Source of the DNA: Clostridia bacterium
GTDB lineage: Bacteria > Bacillota > Clostridia > RGIG6154
NCBI GenBank assembly: GCA_045589295.1
Contig: JAZNOU010000017.1
Span: 1 to 10,461 of the forward strand
Reading direction: 5' to 3'
Length of the DNA stretch: 10,461 nt
This document shows, piece after piece, positions 1,493-10,461 of this stretch; position 1 is the stretch's first letter, and each line of letters begins with the position of its first letter. The notes beneath the pieces were generated by a model, which was given only the letters and a program-made list of their open reading frames with translations, did no database searches and was not told where the DNA came from. The position numbers and the translations under genes are program-made.

Positions 1493-3076
1493 TTGAAGAA
1501 AAGGATTTTAGCTATAGCTGCAAATTCGAAATTTTCACATTCAAGTTTAGCACTTAGATATTTCAGAGAAAATTCAAAGTGTGATATTTTTGAATGCAGT
1601 ATTAACGATAATATTTTTGATGTGTATTCACATTTGTGTGAATTACCATATGAAATAATGTGTTTTTCAGTATATATTTGGAATGTTGAGTTTGTTTTAA
1701 AATTGTTACCAATGCTCAAAAATGCCAGACCAGATGTTAAAGTTATTCTTGGCGGACCAGAGGCAGGGTATAATTATATTGAATTACTGGAAAAATATTA
1801 TTTTATAGACGGAATTATATATGGGGAAGGAGAAAATGCACTTTTGGCTGTTGCGGAAGGAAAAAGTGAAAGTGAAATACCAAACTATATATATCGTAAT
1901 AATGTAGAAATTGTATGTAACGAAGTTAAAAAAGTAGATCTTGTAAAAATAAAATTCCCGTATACATATGATGATTTAAATGAACTAAAGAACAAAATAG
2001 TTTATTTTGAATCCTCAAGAGGATGCCTCTTTAATTGTTCATATTGCTTATCATCTTCTGAAGGTAAAACAAGATATTTTGATATGGAATATGTTAAAAA
2101 AGGAATAAAATTTTTTATTGATAATTCTGTACCGTTAGTTAAATTTGTTGATAGGACGTTCAATGAGAATAATGAGCGTGCCTGCGAAATTTTAAACTTT
2201 ATAGCTCAAAATAATAAAGGTACAAAATTTCATTTTGAAGTATCACCAATTTTGCTAACAAAAGAGTTTAAAGAAATTTTAGAGAAAACAAATGGTTTAG
2301 TACAACTTGAAATGGGGATTCAGACTACAAACATAGATGCGATGAAATGTATTAACAGGATGTATGATATTAAAAAAGTAAAAGAAAATTTGGATTTGTT
2401 TCCGCCGAATGTTCATATTCATCTTGATTTAATAGCAGGTTTGCCGATGGAAACATTACAGACCTTTAGAGATGGATTTAACTATGTTTATGCATTAACT
2501 CCAGATATGTTGCAACTTGGTTTTTTGAAATTACTTCATAATACCCGTCTAAAAAAAGATGCACAAAAGTATGGGATAGTAACTACAAATTTCCCGCCAT
2601 ACGAAGTGCTCTCAACTGACACAATGTCAGTTGAAGATATAATGTTGCTTAAGAAAATTGAAAATGCAGTGGATAAGTATTATAACAGCGGAGTGTTTTG
2701 CAAAACAATAAAGGCTTTAGCTCAAGAACCTTTTGAAATTTTTAAAAATATCGGTTTGGAATTATATCGGCGAGAAAAGAATGGTCCATTGTCAAGAACA
2801 GCGCTTTACGAACTTTTATATGATTTATATGGCGAAAAAATTAAAGTGCAGTTAGCGAATGATTTTGTTGTTAACAATCCTAATTTAAAAATTCCGGACA
2901 TACTTTTGTCAGAAAGTGATAAAAATGAAAATCTAAATTATTACAGAGAGAAAATTCTAAAATATGACGATTACAAAAATATAAAATTTAGGTTGGTTTC
3001 GGCTGGTGGGGAGATATTTATTATAAGCGGCAAAAATAAAGTTGAATCTTATGTAGAGTTTTGTAAAAGACATTAA
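1493..3076 (+). CDS. B12-binding-domain radical SAM protein (DUF4080-type C-terminal region)
   Basis: N-terminal B12-binding-like motifs (HSSLALRY, FSVYIWN, ILGGPE, GEGE), CxxxCxxC in SRGCLFNCSYC, then FVDRTFN, HFE, EMGIQT, HLDLIAGLP and LQLGFLKLL...PPYEVL. TTG start with RBS AAGGAG at 1480-1485. Confidence 0.88.
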   Translation: MKKRILAIAANSKFSHSSLALRYFRENSKCDIFECSINDNIFDVYSHLCELPYEIMCFSVYIWNVEFVLKLLPMLKNARPDVKVILGGPEAGYNYIELLEKYYFIDGIIYGEGENALLAVAEGKSESEIPNYIYRNNVEIVCNEVKKVDLVKIKFPYTYDDLNELKNKIVYFESSRGCLFNCSYCLSSSEGKTRYFDMEYVKKGIKFFIDNSVPLVKFVDRTFNENNERACEILNFIAQNNKGTKFHFEVSPILLTKEFKEILEKTNGLVQLEMGIQTTNIDAMKCINRMYDIKKVKENLDLFPPNVHIHLDLIAGLPMETLQTFRDGFNYVYALTPDMLQLGFLKLLHNTRLKKDAQKYGIVTTNFPPYEVLSTDTMSVEDIMLLKKIENAVDKYYNSGVFCKTIKALAQEPFEIFKNIGLELYRREKNGPLSRTALYELLYDLYGEKIKVQLANDFVVNNPNLKIPDILLSESDKNENLNYYREKILKYDDYKNIKFRLVSAGGEIFIISGKNKVESYVEFCKRH

Positions 3077-3114
3077 AATAAAACAAGCGGTGATTTTCAC
3101 CGCTTGTTTTATTT
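3076..3114. terminator. Bidirectional intrinsic terminator between the convergent radical SAM and PEPCK genes
   Basis: Perfect 18-bp inverted repeat AAATAAAACAAGCGGTGA-ttt-TCACCGCTTGTTTTATTT with T-runs on both strands, filling the gap between the two stop codons. Confidence 0.92.
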
Positions 3115-3118
3115 ATAA

Positions 3119-4885
3119 TTATTTTAAGTTGTTTTCAAGAATTTCAAGCTGTTTTGCAATTTCAGCAGGAAGTCTATCACCAAACTGGGCAAAATATTCT
3201 TTTTGATTAACAACGTCTTCCATCCAGATGTCTTTATCAACACTTAAAAGTTCTTTTAAAACTTCAGGTTTGAGATCTAAATCTGTTGTGTCAATTCCAC
3301 CTTCTTCTGGAAGATAACCGATTGCAGAATCTGTAGCGCCAACTTTACCTTCGCATCTATCAAGAATCCAGAGAAGAACACGCATGTTGTCTCCAAATCC
3401 AGGCCACATAAAGTTGCCATCTTCGTCCTGTCTAAACCAGTTAACATGGAAAATCTTAGGAGCTTTTTCTGGGTCGAGTTTGTTACCCATATCAATCCAG
3501 TGTGCAAAATAGTCAGCCATATTATAACCAACAAATGGTTTCATAGCCATTGGGTCACGTCTTACAACGCCAACCGCACCTGCAGCTGCAGCAGTTGTTT
3601 CAGAGGCCATTGTTGCACCAACGAATACACCATGTTCCCAATCTCTTGCCTGGTACACAAGGGGAGCAGTTTTAGCACGACGTCCACCAAACACAATAGC
3701 AGAAATCGGCACACCCTGCGGATTTTCAAATTCACTTGAAATACATGGGCAGTTTACAGCAGGAGCAGTAAATCTTGAGTTAGGATGAGCAAGTTTACCG
3801 TCAAATGTCTTGCCGTTAACAACTTTACCCGTCCATTCTGTGCAGTTTTCCGGAGGATTTTTATCCAAACCTTCCCACCAAACAGTATTATCATCATTGT
3901 TGATTGCAACATTTGTAAAAATAGTATTCTTCTTTGTTGCAGCCAATGCATTGAAGTTTGTTTTTTCGCTTGTTCCTGGAGCAACTCCAAAGAAACCAGC
4001 TTCTGGGTTAATGGCATAGAGTCTGCCGTCAGCACCGATCTTAAGCCAAGCAATGTCGTCACCAACAGTCCAAACTTTATAACCTTTTTTCTTAAGGTAT
4101 TCTGGTGGGATAAGCATAGCAAGGTTTGTTTTTCCGCAAGCAGATGGGAAAGCAGCGCAAATGTACTTAACCTCACCTTTAGGATTTTCAAGGCCCAAAA
4201 TGAGCATATGTTCAGCCATCCAACCTTCTTTCATGCCGAGGTAAGATGCAATTCTAAGCGCAAAACATTTTTTGCCGAGCAAAACGTTTCCACCGTATGC
4301 TGAGTTAATTGACCAAATTGTTGAATCCTGTGGGAACTGAACGATGTATCTTTCTTCAGGATCAACATCTTTTTTAGCGTGGAGACATTTAACAAAGTCT
4401 GCATCATCACCTAAAGCGTCAATAACAGCTTTTCCGACTCTTGTCATAATAGCCATATTTAAAACAACGTAGATGCTGTCTGTAAGCTCAATACCAATTT
4501 TTGAAAATGGTGAACCTACAGGACCCATTGAGTAGGGGATAACGTACATTGTTCTGCCCATCATAGAGCCTGTGTAAAGTTTTTTGAGTTTTGCGTACAT
4601 TTCAGCAGGGTCCATCCAGTTGTTAATAGGACCAGCCTCTTCTTTTGTAGGAGTACAGATAAATGTTCTGTCCTCTACACGAGCAACGTCATTTTCAGCA
4701 GTTCTGTGATAGTAGCAACCAGGTAATTTTTCCTGATTGAGTTTAATAATTTCGCCTGTAGCAACAGCTTCAGCGCGAAGTTCTTCAAGTTGCTGTTCGG
4801 AACCGTCAATCCAAACGATTTTGTCAGGTTTAGTCATTTCAGCCATTTCATTAAGCCAACTTAAAACAACCTTGTTATTTGTCAT
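3119..4885 (-). CDS. pckG: Phosphoenolpyruvate carboxykinase (GTP)
   Basis: Motifs DVARVE, YGGNVLLGKKCFALRIAS, WMAEHM, AAFPSACGKTN, VGDDIAW, NPEAGFFGVAPGT, AHPNSRF, RRDPMAM and VNWFR...WPGFGDNMRVL, all diagnostic of GTP-type PEPCK. RBS GGAGGA upstream. Confidence 0.96.
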   Translation of the reverse strand: MTNNKVVLSWLNEMAEMTKPDKIVWIDGSEQQLEELRAEAVATGEIIKLNQEKLPGCYYHRTAENDVARVEDRTFICTPTKEEAGPINNWMDPAEMYAKLKKLYTGSMMGRTMYVIPYSMGPVGSPFSKIGIELTDSIYVVLNMAIMTRVGKAVIDALGDDADFVKCLHAKKDVDPEERYIVQFPQDSTIWSINSAYGGNVLLGKKCFALRIASYLGMKEGWMAEHMLILGLENPKGEVKYICAAFPSACGKTNLAMLIPPEYLKKKGYKVWTVGDDIAWLKIGADGRLYAINPEAGFFGVAPGTSEKTNFNALAATKKNTIFTNVAINNDDNTVWWEGLDKNPPENCTEWTGKVVNGKTFDGKLAHPNSRFTAPAVNCPCISSEFENPQGVPISAIVFGGRRAKTAPLVYQARDWEHGVFVGATMASETTAAAAGAVGVVRRDPMAMKPFVGYNMADYFAHWIDMGNKLDPEKAPKIFHVNWFRQDEDGNFMWPGFGDNMRVLLWILDRCEGKVGATDSAIGYLPEEGGIDTTDLDLKPEVLKELLSVDKDIWMEDVVNQKEYFAQFGDRLPAEIAKQLEILENNLK

Positions 4886-6108: not shown

Positions 6109-7347
6109 TTATGTCCATGCAAACATGTTTTCTAATGCATTGACTTCCTGCCGCTTTTTCGCTTCGGTTACATGGGTATAAATCTCTAATGTTGTCTTGA
6201 TTTCTTTATGTCCCATGACATTTTGTATCACCGATAGATTTATATCCGCTTCACACAATCTTGTGGCGAATGTGTGCCTAAGGTTGTGGCAACTGAAGTT
6301 GGGGATTAAAACAGGATTTTCTTCTTTTAACAATGCTTCATCGTTGTAGTCACGGACAATTCTGCGAATTGCTTTGTTAACAGTTCCGTAGTGTTGCACA
6401 CTGCCGAAGCGATTGACAAATATGAAATCTGTGTAGCAATCAATCGTTACCTGACAGGTAATGCCTGTTTCTTCCTGATTTGCTTTTTCAAGGAGGAATG
6501 CTTCCTTTACAAAGTCCATCATCGGGATTTTGCGGTATCCCTTTTTCGTCTTCGGTGTGTTGATTGCGAACTTGCATTTCTTGCCTTTGCCTGTGCTGTA
6601 GTAAACAAGAGTGTGATTGATATCAATAACTCCTTCTTCCAGGTCAATATCGCACCATCTAAGCCCTGATACTTCACCAATTCGCATTCCGCTTCCGAAC
6701 ATTACAGCGAATAGAGGATACCAATGATTATACTGAGGCTTCCTTTTCAAAAAGTCCAGAAATAATCTTTGCTCATCTGCCGTTAATGCTTTTCGCTCTT
6801 TGATTTCGAAATCATGAGCTTGTTTCAGTTCTTTGAGCATCTTGTCAGTAGGGTTTGAGCGGATGCAGTTATCATCCACTGCTAAATCGAATATCTGATG
6901 CAATACATTGTGAATTGTATCGATGGTGGATATCGATAACATTCTTTCATCTGCGAGGGTGTTATAAAACCTTTTCACATCCGATTTCTTTACATCCGCA
7001 ATCCTATTCTTGCCGAAACTGTCTCTGACATAGTTGTTATACATGTATAGATAGTTTTTAAATGTGTTATCTTTCAGACCTCGTTTTAAGTCGCACCAGG
7101 TATCAAACACATTGTTAACTGTCAGCTTCTTTGTTTCGGTTTTGATTCCATCGTGTTCGTCAATCACAATTTCTTTTTCAAGCTCTCTGAGTTCTTCCAG
7201 AGTGGGTGCATATACAGCATGTCTTACTCCGTCAGGGCCAACCCATCTGTAATCGTATGTTCCGTTCTTTCTCTGTGATTCGCCCTTGCGAAGCACTCTT
7301 CGTTTGTTGTCAAATCGTTTGTTATTTTTACCTTTCTCTATATTCAT
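6109..7347 (-). CDS. int: Tyrosine recombinase/integrase, Tn916 Int-like
   Basis: N-terminal arm-binding domain RVLRKGESQRKNGTYDYRW. Catalytic residues in GMRIGE (R), PKT (K), HNLRH, MGH and IYTH (Y). ATG 7347 follows RBS AAGGAG (7359-7354). Confidence 0.95.
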   Translation of the reverse strand: MNIEKGKNNKRFDNKRRVLRKGESQRKNGTYDYRWVGPDGVRHAVYAPTLEELRELEKEIVIDEHDGIKTETKKLTVNNVFDTWCDLKRGLKDNTFKNYLYMYNNYVRDSFGKNRIADVKKSDVKRFYNTLADERMLSISTIDTIHNVLHQIFDLAVDDNCIRSNPTDKMLKELKQAHDFEIKERKALTADEQRLFLDFLKRKPQYNHWYPLFAVMFGSGMRIGEVSGLRWCDIDLEEGVIDINHTLVYYSTGKGKKCKFAINTPKTKKGYRKIPMMDFVKEAFLLEKANQEETGITCQVTIDCYTDFIFVNRFGSVQHYGTVNKAIRRIVRDYNDEALLKEENPVLIPNFSCHNLRHTFATRLCEADINLSVIQNVMGHKEIKTTLEIYTHVTEAKKRQEVNALENMFAWT

Positions 7348-7401
7348 AATTAACTCCTTCCTAATGGCTTGCACCGGAAGGAACCTTAACTATCGATATT
7401 C

Positions 7402-7430
7402 ATTATACTATATTTTAGCTGTGTAGTCCA
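7402..7430 (-). promoter_or_regulatory. Candidate int-specific promoter between xis and int
   Basis: Minus strand TGGACT (7430-7425), 17-nt spacer, TATAAT (7407-7402). Confidence 0.55.
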
Positions 7431-7471
7431 GGAATTTCAGTACAAGCCATTGTAAAATTTAATATAATTTT

Positions 7472-7666
7472 TCATATCGAGTATTGCTCCTCTATGTATT
7501 TAAGGAATTTATTTTTCTTGATAAGTCGTTTGGATCCAATCCATAATACAAAATCGCAATCCTCGTTATCGGTGAGGTCACGTAATTTCTGCTGTCCGAT
7601 ACTAAAATACGCTGCAGCTTCCTCTAAGGTTAAGTTTGCCTTTTCCCAAAAAGGAATTTCTTTCAT
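7472..7666 (-). CDS. xis: Excisionase, Tn916 Xis-like (64 aa)
   Basis: MKEIPFWEKANLTLEEAAAYFSIGQQKLRDL...VLWIGSKRLIKK fits the Tn916 Xis winged-helix pattern. It lies directly upstream of int, and ATG 7666 follows GGAAAGGTGG. Confidence 0.9.
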   Translation of the reverse strand: MKEIPFWEKANLTLEEAAAYFSIGQQKLRDLTDNEDCDFVLWIGSKRLIKKNKFLKYIEEQYSI

Positions 7667-7667
7667 A

Positions 7668-7703
7668 TCACGCACCCACCTTTCCGATTCTTGCAAATCT
7701 CAT
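7668..7703 (-). CDS. 11-aa micro-ORF MRFARIGKVGA (leader peptide or deletion remnant)
   Basis: Strong RBS GAAAGGAG 7 nt before ATG 7703. Its stop abuts the xis start (TGA-T-ATG). Confidence 0.35.
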   Translation of the reverse strand: MRFARIGKVGA

Positions 7704-7849
7704 TTGAGTTCTCCTTTCGATTTACTAAGTCATATATTTAATACTCAAATCACCGAAAGTTTGAGTTTCTCCTTTCTTTTAGATTTTTGACCGCCGTACA
7801 TTAAAGATAATCGGTGAATGTGTAAGTATTATCAAGTTAAGTTTGCTTT

Positions 7850-8112
7850 ACATCAAAACGGAAGCAGCACCTTCCCACAGGAGTTTCACCTCAGCCCATT
7901 CTGATGGCCTGCCATCCAATTCTGTGACGAGTTCAAGACGGGAGTATCATTATCAGCAATAATGGTCTTCGCATAGCGGTTTGCAACTCCGCCTTATTGC
8001 ATGAAGTTTATCGCTCGCTTTCTGTGGCGTAGAGAAGGTCTTCGCGCCTTTGCAAAACTGCTCGCATTATTGCTTGTGTGTTTTGATGTTGTTATTCACT
8101 TTTCAAGGTTCA
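7850..8112 (-). ncRNA. Structured cis-acting RNA upstream of xis (Tn916 antiterminator-like leader)
   Basis: No credible ORF. A perfect 10-bp closing inverted repeat (7850-7859 / 8080-8089) encloses several internal hairpins, and a 5' boxA-like TGAACCTTGAAAAGTGAATAAC lies at 8112-8091. Motifs GCGAGCG, GATAATGATACTCCC and GGTGAAACTCCTGTGG resemble, from memory, the Tn916 region upstream of xis. Confidence 0.62.
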
Positions 8113-8151
8113 ACTTATATATTTCAGCTAGGATTTTCTACTTGGGCTATC

Positions 8152-8182
8152 ATTATAGCGCGTGAACGTAGGGGCCTGTCAA
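8152..8182 (-). promoter_or_regulatory. Candidate promoter for the leader RNA-xis-int transcript (19-nt spacer)
   Basis: Minus strand TTGACA (8182-8177) and TATAAT (8157-8152) are both perfect but separated by 19 nt. Confidence 0.5.
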
Positions 8183-8405
8183 GGCCTTTTTGCTCGCGTC
8201 ACGAAATTTTAACAAAATTGCAGCGAACGCGCAATAATTAAAATTTAACGATCGATTTTTTCTCACATTGAAACTGCTTTATATATCGCATTTTTTATTA
8301 ACAAAAGAGCAGGCGGGGCAATTACCCTACGTGCAATAGTTTTCTTCTACAACGGGCTTATACAGCCGTTACACTCGCACTTAAAATTGATTTTAGTTAT
8401 CAGTC

Positions 8406-8687
8406 CTAGTCATATATATCACTGTCATTCTCAATACATGCCATAACAAATCTTGTTCCAAGTTTGAATCCTTTTATAAAGGTTTGGCATTCTGTGATTT
8501 GTATCATTTCATCGTAGCAAGCTTTGAATCTATCAAACAATTCTTTTTCCTGATCGTTTAGGGTTTCGAGCAACTTTTCTTCGTTCTTGGTGAGTAATCT
8601 GAATACCTTATCAAATTTCCTTTGTCTTTGAAATGGTCTTTCCATCGGGTTTATGTTTCCATACCAAAATTCTTCGAGTATATGCAT
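8406..8687 (-). CDS. DUF6809-like small protein (93 aa)
   Basis: N-terminal ILEEFWYGNINP and C-terminal FIKGFKLG motifs are typical of this MGE-associated family. RBS GGAGGA; the start overlaps the upstream stop (TAATG). Confidence 0.8.
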   Translation of the reverse strand: MHILEEFWYGNINPMERPFQRQRKFDKVFRLLTKNEEKLLETLNDQEKELFDRFKACYDEMIQITECQTFIKGFKLGTRFVMACIENDSDIYD

Positions 8688-8929
8688 TATTTTTCCTCCT
8701 TACGCAAAGAGAGCGACTCAAGTTCCGGTATATCCGAAATTGAGTCGCCCTCTTCATTCATTTTTTTAGCTGTAATCAGTGCGTGTTTGACATAAATCAT
8801 ATTTAGTTGTTCTCGTATCGTCTTCGCGGCAACTTTTTGTTCCATCATTTTGAATACTTCTACAAACACAGCACTTTCAATTCCGTATTTGTCGCCGTAC
8901 ATAATTTCTTCCAATGTGTATTTAGACAT
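8687..8929 (-). CDS. Hypothetical protein (80 aa), translationally coupled to the DUF6809-like gene
   Basis: ATG 8929 (MSKYTLEE) follows RBS GGAGGTG, and there is a TAATG overlap with the next gene. The ORF-track extension to 8995 runs through the predicted promoter. Confidence 0.7.
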   Translation of the reverse strand: MSKYTLEEIMYGDKYGIESAVFVEVFKMMEQKVAAKTIREQLNMIYVKHALITAKKMNEEGDSISDIPELESLSLRKEEK

Positions 8930-8952
8930 TTGCGTCACCTCCTGTGACACAA

Positions 8953-8981
8953 ACATTACCATGTATAATAGTAAAAGTCCA
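8953..8981 (-). promoter_or_regulatory. Candidate promoter for the two small genes
   Basis: Minus strand TGGACT (8981-8976), 17-nt spacer, then TAATGT (8958-8953) preceded by TGG (extended -10-like). Confidence 0.45.
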
Positions 8982-9020
8982 GACAAACATTTCATAATTC
9001 TAAGATTTGTTATATAATTG

Positions 9021-9180
9021 GACTATGGCTGTGAATAGACTAGACAGTACCATGGGTCCTTGAATCCATTTGTTGTGAGTAGTCATTCATCTCCCTACTG
9101 ATGCTTGGTTGAGATAGTTGGGTCACCGAATCCATATAAGGCACATGAATGAGCTCAGGACGGACAGATGATAGCCAAAT
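9021..9180 (+). ncRNA. Candidate IS110 bridge RNA
   Basis: Located in the left non-coding end just downstream of a -10 box. It has two copies of TGGGTC-N3-GAATCCAT (9053-9069, 9119-9135) and multiple complementary stems. Confidence 0.65.
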
Positions 9181-9203
9181 AAATTATATTGGAGGAGATG
9201 CTT

Positions 9204-10403
9204 TTGAGATACTGTTTAGGAATTGATGTTGCAGCTATGGATTCTATGTACTGCCTTATTTCCGAAGCCGGTGAGATTATTTTTATGCCAGAAAAACATC
9301 CTCATACTTTAACTGGATTTATGGATGTTATCAGCAAGTTTGAAAACATCCCACAGGAGCAGATTTCTATAATTATGGAATCAACTTCTACCTACCATCT
9401 GAAAGTAGAGAGATTTTTTCGTGAAAACACCGACTGTGAAATTATTATTCTTAATCCTATCATTTCTAACAGACATAAACGTAACTTAAGAAAAACTAAA
9501 ACTGACAAAGAGGATTGCCTGAATCTTATCGATGTGTTCTTCAAAAAGGAATACAACATGCAGGTTCATCATGAAGAAATATACTCTGAAATGCAGTTTC
9601 TTTCACGTCAAATTCAACATTTACAAGAGGGAACTACGCGAACCAGAAATCGTTTCCGACAGTTGGTTTCTATGCTTAATCCTGCTTACATAGAGGTGTT
9701 TCGCAGCGACTATATGTATAGCGAAACGGCACTTTCATTCATAGCCAAATGGCCTCATTGTGATATGCTCAAAGAGGCATCTGTTGATGAGATAGCTAAG
9801 TCATTAGCCTCTACTCGCCAAAGATTTAACAGTTATTACACTAAAAAAGCAGAGCAATTGAAAGCATATGCCTTGGATTGTTACCCAACTACAGATAAAA
9901 ACAGTGTAATGACAACCTGTCTCTCAGAAACAACACTATATCTCTTATCTCAATTAAAGGAAATTGATGTTTTAAAAGAGAGACTTATTTCATTAGCACA
10001 ATCAACAGAATTGTATGAGATATATGTATCAATCCCAGGAATCGGTCCATATTTAGCATCAACATTAATTGCCGAATTAAAGGATATTAGACGATTTGAA
10101 AATCACAAGAAGTTGACCGCCTATTGTGGTTTCGATCCTACAATTATTCAATCCGGCAAAAGTGTTCACTACAATGGCCCCATATCTAAGCGTGGCAACA
10201 GTACCGCTAGAAAAATGCTTTTTTACACTGTCAATATTATTCTAACTGTTGCAAGAAAAACAAACCGTGAAATGCCTCTTTTGCTCTATTACGAAAAAAA
10301 GCGCGGTGAGGGAAAACATCACCACGCTTGTATAGTAGCTTGTTGCACCAAGTTACTACGTATTTTACTCGCAATGAGCAAGCAAAACATTCTGTATCAT
10401 TAA
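9204..10403 (+). CDS. IS110-family DEDD transposase / bridge recombinase
   Basis: RuvC-like DEDD residues in LGIDVA, IMESTSTYH and KTKTDKED, a coiled-coil linker, and a C-terminal Tnp domain SIPGIG...AYCGFDP...QSG...ISKRGN. TTG 9204 is best spaced from RBS GGAGGAG (9191-9197); ATG 9198 is an alternative start. Confidence 0.94.
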   Translation: MRYCLGIDVAAMDSMYCLISEAGEIIFMPEKHPHTLTGFMDVISKFENIPQEQISIIMESTSTYHLKVERFFRENTDCEIIILNPIISNRHKRNLRKTKTDKEDCLNLIDVFFKKEYNMQVHHEEIYSEMQFLSRQIQHLQEGTTRTRNRFRQLVSMLNPAYIEVFRSDYMYSETALSFIAKWPHCDMLKEASVDEIAKSLASTRQRFNSYYTKKAEQLKAYALDCYPTTDKNSVMTTCLSETTLYLLSQLKEIDVLKERLISLAQSTELYEIYVSIPGIGPYLASTLIAELKDIRRFENHKKLTAYCGFDPTIIQSGKSVHYNGPISKRGNSTARKMLFYTVNIILTVARKTNREMPLLLYYEKKRGEGKHHHACIVACCTKLLRILLAMSKQNILYH

Positions 10404-10429
10404 TATACATCAAGTTTCACTGATTTTCA

Positions 10430-10451
10430 AGAGCTATTTGAAGATAGCTCT
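10430..10451 (+). terminator. Hairpin downstream of the IS110 gene
   Basis: AGAGCTAT-ttgaag-ATAGCTCT forms an 8-bp stem, followed by a weak GTTT tail. Confidence 0.5.
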
Positions 10452-10461
10452 GTTTGCTATG

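Follow-up and report, generated by a model that had tools for sequence, protein, structure and literature searches.

The window, by which we mean the whole stretch of DNA analysed here, is one whole contig of 10,461 nt from a Clostridia bacterium (JAZNOU010000017.1) and ends 58 nt past the stop codon of an IS110-family recombinase gene on its forward strand (9204-10403). Upstream of the gene, on the same strand, lies the non-coding left end of the element (8962-9203), which starts TGTATAAT and very probably encodes a bridge RNA of ~200 nt (~8976 to ~9177). The original prediction had proposed, at 9005-9180, a two-module bridge RNA of an IS110 element with an intact recombinase. The region does lie in an IS110 left end, with PF01548 and PF02371 encoded downstream, and two hairpins do head two internal-loop modules. 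The RNA probably begins upstream of the proposed interval, with a 5' stem-loop at 8976-9024; gene and RNA are intact, but the element as a whole is cut by the contig end before its right end.

The likely start of the recombinase gene is a TTG at 9204, 6 nt past GGAGGAG (9191-9197), in a frame open from 9189. The translated frame 9189-10403 matches PF01548 over residues 10-164 (E = 2.8e-21) and PF02371 over residues 281-348 (E = 1.8e-20), and most relatives of the protein are 399 aa long. Residues D13, E64, D106 and D109, which are candidate catalytic residues, and the triplet Q321-S322-G323 (numbering from 9189 throughout) do not vary in either of two alignments, one of 24 and one of 26 relatives. 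Sequence matches to solved structures cover the C-terminal part only (ISCro4 9t56, E = 2e-7; IS621 8wt6, E = 8.2e-6). An AlphaFold (AF2) model of the protein (mean predicted local distance difference test score, 85.1) found its best matches in the synaptic-complex chains of IS621 and ISCro4 (8wt6 and 9t56; E ~1e-10, with 1.4e-10 for IS621), at 15-17% identity and template modelling scores of 0.51-0.54 by query length and 0.62-0.67 by target length. The modelled recombinase has the IS621 fold at about 16% identity, in keeping with the large distance from IS621 that had been proposed.

The ends and core of the element were placed by comparison with homologues. A 98%-identical copy in another metagenome-assembled genome (MAG), locus L004, aligns to window positions 8957-10461 and then continues beyond. 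The complete genome WC44 holds seven copies of a relative with 47% identity, and these fix the ends, with CA at both junctions and the layout ATTATAA-CA, TGTATGAT ... TTAGAAAGT-CA, TAYTAT from left flank to right flank. Because of this layout and the L004 alignment, the core of the window element was placed at CA 8960-8961 and its first base at 8962, where homologues share a conserved terminus, (T/A/C)GTAT. The identity of the core as CA follows from both junctions of the seven WC44 copies and from empty sites, which hold a single left target-CA-right target arrangement; CA is also found at both junctions in L004 to L008 and in the L149 group. Directly outside the window element is the left target, ACATTAC followed by the core (8953-8961). 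On the other side, a terminator-like hairpin (10430-10461, forward strand) is followed by the contig end, and the right end of the element (~58 nt more) lies beyond the window. In L004 that right end reads ...TTGACAAATCTTAGATAGT-CA and is followed by CAAAAAATG.

The right non-coding end of the L004 element also holds a nested IS30-like element (L004:1506-2617), inserted at the point that matches window position 10461. It encodes a 312-aa transposase with an rve domain on the minus strand, has inverted ends and is bounded by a 27-bp duplication of window 10435-10461, after which the IS110 right end resumes. This IS30-like element is absent from the window's own assembly. The exact coincidence of the window's contig end with the L004 insertion point suggests either the same nested insertion or an assembly break induced by the repeat. 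Searches of the window's own genome (97% complete) by DNA or by RNA model gave no further copies of the IS110 element, and a DNA search of 60 relatives and of plasmids yielded nothing useful.

Two copies of the motif TGGGTC-NNN-GAATCCAT, at 9053-9069 and 9119-9135, are the only matches in the window even when one mismatch is allowed (0.00 expected by chance; two matches in 0 of 200 shuffles), and every string listed by the original prediction lies where it was said to lie. Both copies can fold, as proposed, into a TGGGT/ATCCA hairpin that includes one G-U pair and leaves a loop of 6 nt. In the IS110-family bridge RNA, these hairpins form the distal tips of the two arms: the first (9053-9068, forward strand) heads the target-binding arm and the second (9119-9134, forward strand) the donor-binding arm. 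Genome contigs supplied 80 homologous loci and metagenome contigs another 80; of these, 157 include the N-terminus of the gene; 94 of these have both hairpins, 44 only the first, 8 only the second and 11 neither, as judged by a simple pattern at the expected distances, with upstream sequence truncated in some of the last group. The AGAYAGT string that was reported before each motif copy is present in both places, but AGACAGT (9042-9048) sits 4 nt from its hairpin, whereas AGATAGT (9112-9118) abuts its own. Since the two are out of register and the first falls within a segment that is freely variable among homologues, the resemblance is probably coincidental.

Around the two arms, the fold comprises a 5' stem-loop and a closing helix. 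The stem-loop (8976-9024, forward strand; closing pairs AGTCCAG/TTGGACT) was found by folding from the left end to the closing helix and is present, with differing sequence, in all 14 representatives folded. The closing helix P1 pairs TGGCTG (9026-9031) with TAGCCA (9172-9177), which is the supported form of the terminal stem first suggested for this region, and across 35 sequences a helix in the equivalent position has 23 different 5' strands. The base stem of the target arm, GACTA (9038-9042) with TAGTC (9080-9084), had likewise been predicted and is borne out by compensatory changes: when RNAalifold was applied to a plain MAFFT alignment of 17 sequences, it recovered the target arm with such changes in its base stem and found both hairpins. 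RNAalifold also placed a small hairpin inside the left donor guide (9110-9118, described below), a pairing that we rejected, since this segment agrees with the element's right end. The base of the donor arm consists of 5' strands at 9087-9105 (TCATC 9087-9091, TCC 9092-9094, CTGA 9098-9101 and GCT 9103-9105) and 3' strands at 9152-9171 (AGC 9152-9154, TCAG 9155-9158, GGA 9162-9164 and GATGA 9167-9171), all on the forward strand. Single-sequence folds of the second half of the RNA gave the same four-helix base in 17 of 17 homologues.

A covariance model (R1) built on an alignment of 35 sequences and calibrated, covering the closing helix, target arm and donor arm (38 pairs), matched 99 of 100 sources upstream of the gene and scored the window at 103.8 bits. 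Over the 94 distinct rows of the resulting alignment, 89.4% of cells were paired compared to 72.8% in shuffled alignments (0 of 500 shuffles reached the observed value) and at most 50.6% when partners were slid. Changes on both sides of the pair were seen in 32 of the 38 model pairs. By helix, pairing was 84.1% in the closing helix (helix 1; both-side changes in 6 of 6 pairs), 100% in the target-arm hairpin (helix 3; G-C replaced by A-U in 6 rows), 85-98% in the donor-arm base (helices 4-6; both-side changes in 17 of 18 pairs) and 99.4% in the donor-arm hairpin (helix 7; G-C replaced by A-U in 43 rows). In the target-arm base (helix 2), four inner pairs are kept with both-side changes and two loop-proximal pairs are often open. 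Three of the pairings first suggested are not conserved over the same 94 rows: TGAAT/ATTCA (64.3% of cells paired), TGCTT/AGGCA (44.8%), in place of which the conserved donor-arm base is that at 9087-9105/9152-9171, and TCATTCAT/ATGAATGA (48.5%, equalled by 102 of 500 shuffles).

Two loci and one junction deserve separate mention. The only source missed by R1, L077, carries a deletion upstream of the recombinase gene that fuses both hairpins into one, as if sequence had been deleted between the repeated hairpins; its hybrid loop combines the 5' half of the target loop (left target guide) with the 3' half of the donor loop (right donor guide) and would match the element's left junction. One WC44-genome locus, L030, has two full-length R1 matches 440 nt apart (1328-1490 and 1770-1932) and an unusually long protein match (1501-3142), and may hold a tandem or nested pair of elements. 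In the window, ATTCATC (9085-9091) can pair either with TGAAT (9032-9036), extending the target arm, or with GATGA (9167-9171), closing the donor arm, and an analogous competition between GAG and CTC occurs in the distant L018 group; these competing pairings may reflect a shiftable junction or a coincidence. R1 gave no match in 149 other genomes of the class, in a search with strict filters that scored only 19 candidates in each genome, and Rfam 15 gave no match within 8962-9203 at E values up to 1.

The loops of the two arms hold four guide segments that match, or covary with, the flanks and ends of the element across homologues with an IS621-like strand logic, as had been anticipated. Among the 94 loci with both hairpins, 84 have a recognisable left-end start, 86 have a right end located through the left donor guide and 5 lack a recognisable right target guide. 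The left target guide was defined as the 9-nt segment whose last base lies one position ahead of the first hairpin, to be compared with the 9-nt flank that ends in the core. [quoted passage not shown] Across 82 unique sites, the guide matched the 7 non-core flank bases perfectly in 48 cases and with one mismatch in 21 (mean match 6.15 of 7 versus 4.03 when permuted; s.d. 0.155, maximum 4.66 in 5000 permutations). There are 14 distinct left target guide types, and for 11 of them the consensus flank lies within one mismatch of the guide.

The right target guide, defined as the 9 nt that follow the first hairpin and end in TG, corresponds to the reverse complement of core plus right flank. The window's copy, TTTGTTGTG (9069-9077, forward strand), has the reverse complement CACAACAAA and therefore expects that sequence as core plus right target; L004, whose guide is identical, has the right flank CACAAAAAA (8 of 9). 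Over 72 unique pairs, the mean match was 4.46 of 7 versus 2.65 when permuted (maximum 3.22). The left donor guide, which takes up the 9 nt in front of the second hairpin, corresponds to the right-end terminus, often with its two distal positions off. In the window it is TGAGATAGT (9110-9118, forward strand), which corresponds to the 9 nt that precede the core at the right end: compared with the L004 right end, TTAGATAGT followed by CA, agreement is 8 of 9 overall and 7 of 7 at the proximal positions. The right donor guide, CATG (9144-9147, forward strand), is complementary to CA, the core, and to TG, with which the left end begins (4 of 4 in the window), and complementarity to core plus left-end start holds in 83 of 83 loci, which fall into three classes of guide and donor sequence (CATG/CATG, 64; CTTG/CAAG, 16; CGTG/CACG, 3). 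We tentatively suggest that TATA (9135-9138) may extend this guide discontiguously. All of the longer guides can be read in the WC44 loops, where ATTATAACA equals the left flank, AATAGTATG is the reverse complement of CA plus TACTATT (the right flank) and TTAGAAAGT equals the right end. In bridge RNAs of the IS621 type, handshake guides beside the right target guide and right donor guide pair with the partner DNA once strands have been exchanged; read by eye, the two bases after the right target guide here are AC in most cases, which would suit a GT ahead of the donor core, with AG in the window, and the base after the right donor guide is always A, while target position 7 varies.

A number of points weigh against the bridge RNA reading or narrow the data behind it. 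At the level of structure, the single-sequence fold of 9005-9190 is unremarkable (z = -0.68), and support for an RNA structure is therefore comparative, not energetic; the model structure of the window has an energy of -29.5 kcal/mol compared to -39.5 kcal/mol for the minimum free energy structure, which is a different fold. P1 alone is not significant in single sequences (in the window it is matched by 9% of shuffles), and the window's own P1 is mis-registered in the R1 alignment, the direct reading being TGGCTG/TAGCCA. The R1 pair counts, moreover, rest on an alignment fitted to the model. At the level of the guides, the analysis was limited to the 94 of 157 loci in which the pattern found both hairpins, and the left-end rule demanded CA, which makes CA at left junctions partly a matter of construction; for that reason, the guide statistics use only non-core positions. 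Agreement of the right target guide with the flank falls from the core outward (0.86, 0.88, 0.64, 0.61, 0.56, 0.51 and 0.40), and the left donor guide does not consistently cover the core. In the clade nearest the window, with left target guide ACATTACCA, only 1 of 8 sites shows a perfect ungapped match, the others having 2 (one site), 3 (one), 4 (four) or 5 (one) mismatches. The right end, right flank and circular form all lie outside the window, and the one true metatranscriptome run that shares a few words with the element gave only a 206-nt contig within the gene.

The mismatched sites of that clade follow a pattern of their own. The commonest flank, CACATACCA, would fit the guide with one bulged base, and only the core-proximal 5 bases are constant. 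Left flanks in L005 and L086-L093 (the 76% clade) are commonly CACATACCA, that is, the guide ACATTACCA minus one T. This suggests either that a one-base bulge is tolerated in natural targets or that only the core-proximal 5 bases matter.

Of the alternatives, the one that survives best accepts the bridge RNA of the family as real and takes the copy in the window for an immobile remnant with mismatched guides, whose right end may have been lost or pushed away by a nested insertion. The contig stops 58 nt past the stop codon, exactly at the point of the IS30-like insertion in L004, the element is present as a single copy in a 97%-complete genome, and the left target guide and left donor guide are each one position off their partners. 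Yet the gene is open with all conserved residues present, the RNA scores as a full-length match, L004 keeps both ends, the core and both promoter halves despite its nested insertion, and single distal mismatches are common in copies that clearly multiplied. We regard a remnant as possible but unlikely.

Much less probable is an explanation in which the conserved structure serves only as a cis-acting leader of the recombinase mRNA, acting on translation or stability and guiding no DNA recognition. The structured region does reach the ribosome-binding site (9191-9197) with no intervening terminator, and the RNA-run contigs showed no separate RNA there; however, a leader gives no reason for four loop segments to track the targets and both element ends across differing loci, and leader and guide roles are not mutually exclusive. 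Least probable of all is that the repeated motif and its surroundings are double-stranded DNA sites, such as subterminal repeats bound by the recombinase: the copies are direct repeats with a strongly conserved hairpin sequence in an element end, where many transposases bind, but the arm-base helices differ wholly in sequence between clades and are still complementary, and 32 of 38 pairs are retained through both-side changes, among them G-C to A-U replacements in each hairpin, which speaks for a single strand that folds.

With the bridge RNA as the preferred reading, the promoter sequences suggest how it might be made. A TATAAT at 8964-8969 (forward strand) is the predicted -10 half of a split promoter that would be complete only when right and left ends are joined. 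TTGACA lies in the right end of L004 (2655-2660), 13 nt ahead of the CA core; with the left-end TG before TATAAT, this gives a 17-nt spacer. The same TTGACA-17-TATAAT arrangement is found in L005, L006, L008 and the WC44 copies. A transcript starting ~7 nt past TATAAT would fall at the foot of the 5' stem-loop. A second, internal promoter-like site is predicted at 8991-9018 (TTCATA-16-TATAAT, forward strand; 10 of 12 in a consensus scan). It lies inside the 5' stem-loop and ends 8 nt before the closing helix, and its -10-like box recurs in homologues; judged by sequence, it could start, in integrated copies, an RNA that would omit the 5' stem-loop.

Public RNA data had little bearing on these predictions. 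In the metatranscriptome, parts of the gene and of a neighbouring gene were covered and the RNA region was not, which is uninformative on expression either way. Contigs from RNA runs cannot reveal transcript starts or ends, and the runs labelled transcriptomic in one study are probably DNA. No right end-left end circle or junction reads were seen in the RNA-run data.

The comparisons show a structure conserved through compensatory changes, complementarity of the guides to flanks and to element ends among homologues, and the family and modelled fold of the protein. The mechanism that we propose extends to transcription, RNA-protein binding, catalysis, a circular form and programmability, all of which we infer. 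Circularisation would create the TTGACA-17-TATAAT promoter, which would drive both the RNA and the gene. The RNA would fold into the 5' stem-loop, the closing helix P1 and two internal-loop arms, each capped by a GGGUC-N3-GAAUCC hairpin. Its first loop would read the target, with 9044-9052, which carries the sequence of the left target and CA core, pairing with the bottom strand and the 3' side (9069-9077) pairing with core plus right target. The second loop would read the joined element ends, through 9110-9118, which carries the sequence of the last right-end bases, and CAUG (9144-9147), which is complementary to the core and the first two left-end bases. The recombinase, which has a RuvC-like DEDD domain as well as a Tnp domain carrying a conserved Ser, would engage the two arms, bring circular element and target together in a synapse and swap their strands at CA.

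The site occupied by the element offers a view of its natural targets. The insertion lies ~20 nt ahead of the ribosome-binding site that serves a small minus-strand gene (8687-8932), which precedes a DUF6809 gene adjoining a Tn916-type excisionase and integrase. Two unoccupied look-alike targets occur in the window's own genome, each placed ~20 nt before the ribosome-binding site of a further DUF6809 gene. One (G000:C8:17306-17321, L166) reads ACAGTACCA then CAAGAAG and matches the left target guide at 9 of 9 positions; the other (G000:C2:16830-16860, L085) reads ACACTACCA then CAGAAAG. Downstream of both, the sequence is the same as that beside the L004 right end. A search of the same genome for the predicted target ACAGTACCACAACAAA with up to 3 mismatches found no enrichment (25 matches versus 28 for a reversed control), and the best match led to a true look-alike site. 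In the 76% clade, two further insertions have DUF6809-like genes immediately downstream (L088 above the Pfam threshold, L086 just below it), and tblastn found no homologues of the small gene 8687-8932 beside other insertions. The element favours a conserved leader before the DUF6809 genes of Tn916-like elements, as a mobile element that targets other mobile elements.

Window 6109-8687 on the minus strand is part of a Tn916-like integrative element, with an integrase (6109-7374), a Tn916-type excisionase (7472-7696) and the DUF6809 gene (8406-8687), all on the minus strand, and the IS110 element lies inside it or at its edge. A pemK RNA motif (7875-7953, minus strand; 53.2 bits versus a threshold of 34.8 bits) was the only above-threshold Rfam match in the window. 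Genes to the left of the Tn916-like element look chromosomal (an ABC ATPase, a radical SAM protein, PEP carboxykinase and a KsgA-like methyltransferase).

Whether the clade as a whole, which spans MAGs of Clostridia, Bacilli and Mycoplasmatota with recombinases 37-76% identical, forms a structurally distinct subtype of bridge RNA is a further question, and we consider it rather improbable. Possible traits of such a subtype include abutting arms in a three-way junction closed by a helix; a target loop with 9+9 nt of guide around the CA core, for a potential 16-bp site; a left donor guide that ends short of the core; the second, internal promoter-like site at 8991-9018; and the mutually exclusive pairings TGAAT/ATTCA or TCATC/GATGA, which could switch between arms. 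Bridge recombinases are under development as programmable tools for DNA insertion, excision and inversion, and orthologues far from IS621 widen the choice of core sequence, guide length and protein scaffold. The homologues also provide a natural guide-target set of ~80 insertion sites, with 14 left-guide types, 29 right-guide types and three right donor guide classes. These natural pairs, together with the unoccupied look-alike targets in the same genome, make the recognition rules directly testable.

Compared with IS621 of E. coli, for which a bridge RNA and recombinase were described by Durrant et al. 2024 (PMC11208160) and Hiraizumi et al. 2024 (PMC11208158), the window locus is similar in several respects, as far as the available parts of those two reports describe them. 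In both, the RNA is encoded in the left end, upstream of the recombinase gene and on the same strand; the first loop is assigned to the target and the second to the donor, with the core included in the pairings and the same strand logic; the right donor guide is short, and the discontiguous right donor guide described for IS621 may apply here; and the split promoter of IS621 has a predicted counterpart here, with one half in the right end and one in the left. The predicted model has the same overall recombinase fold, and the DEDD spacing is similar (D13/E64/D106/D109 plus S322 here, D11/E60/D102/D105 plus S241 in IS621; PMC11208158, available parts). The differences lie in the recombinase sequence, which is ~16% identical in the fold alignment and recognisable by sequence comparison only in its C-terminal part, and, against the IS621 values given in those parts, in the protein length (399-404 aa here versus 326-341 aa), the core (CA versus CT), the left end (242 nt versus 191 nt) and the right target guide segment (9 nt here, of which natural sites match well only at the first 2 positions past the core, versus 4 nt). 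The arms here abut and are enclosed by a closing helix.

The IS1111 group shares with the window element the recombinase superfamily and the idea of an element-encoded guide RNA. Its seekRNA lies downstream of the recombinase gene, in the right end, whereas the guide region here is upstream and only the terminator-like hairpin and the right end follow the gene. SeekRNAs of IS1111-group elements are mentioned in the available part of PMC13604230. ISCro4/IS622, a bridge recombinase described in a preprint that was available in part (10.1101/2025.05.14.653916), is the best sequence match among solved structures (PDB 9t56, E = 2e-7) and shares first place with IS621 among the fold matches, its recombinase being equally distant from that of the window (16-17% identity). 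Another Clostridia-class IS110 is CazIS110-1 of Caloranaerobacter azorensis, which, according to the accessible part of a preprint (bioRxiv 10.1101/2025.10.25.684509), has a bridge RNA active in vivo and in vitro; that RNA is ~170 nt long with target- and donor-binding loops, and the same part of the preprint reports an abundant 77-nt RNA holding only the target-binding loop. In 2024, bridge RNAs were described as a general feature of IS110 orthologues, and the present clade may already be among the orthologues catalogued with PMC11208160. Because of that generality and of the clostridial element with an active bridge RNA, the kind of system is already known, and the window locus is, on a well-supported reading, a further example of the bridge-RNA system first described in 2024.

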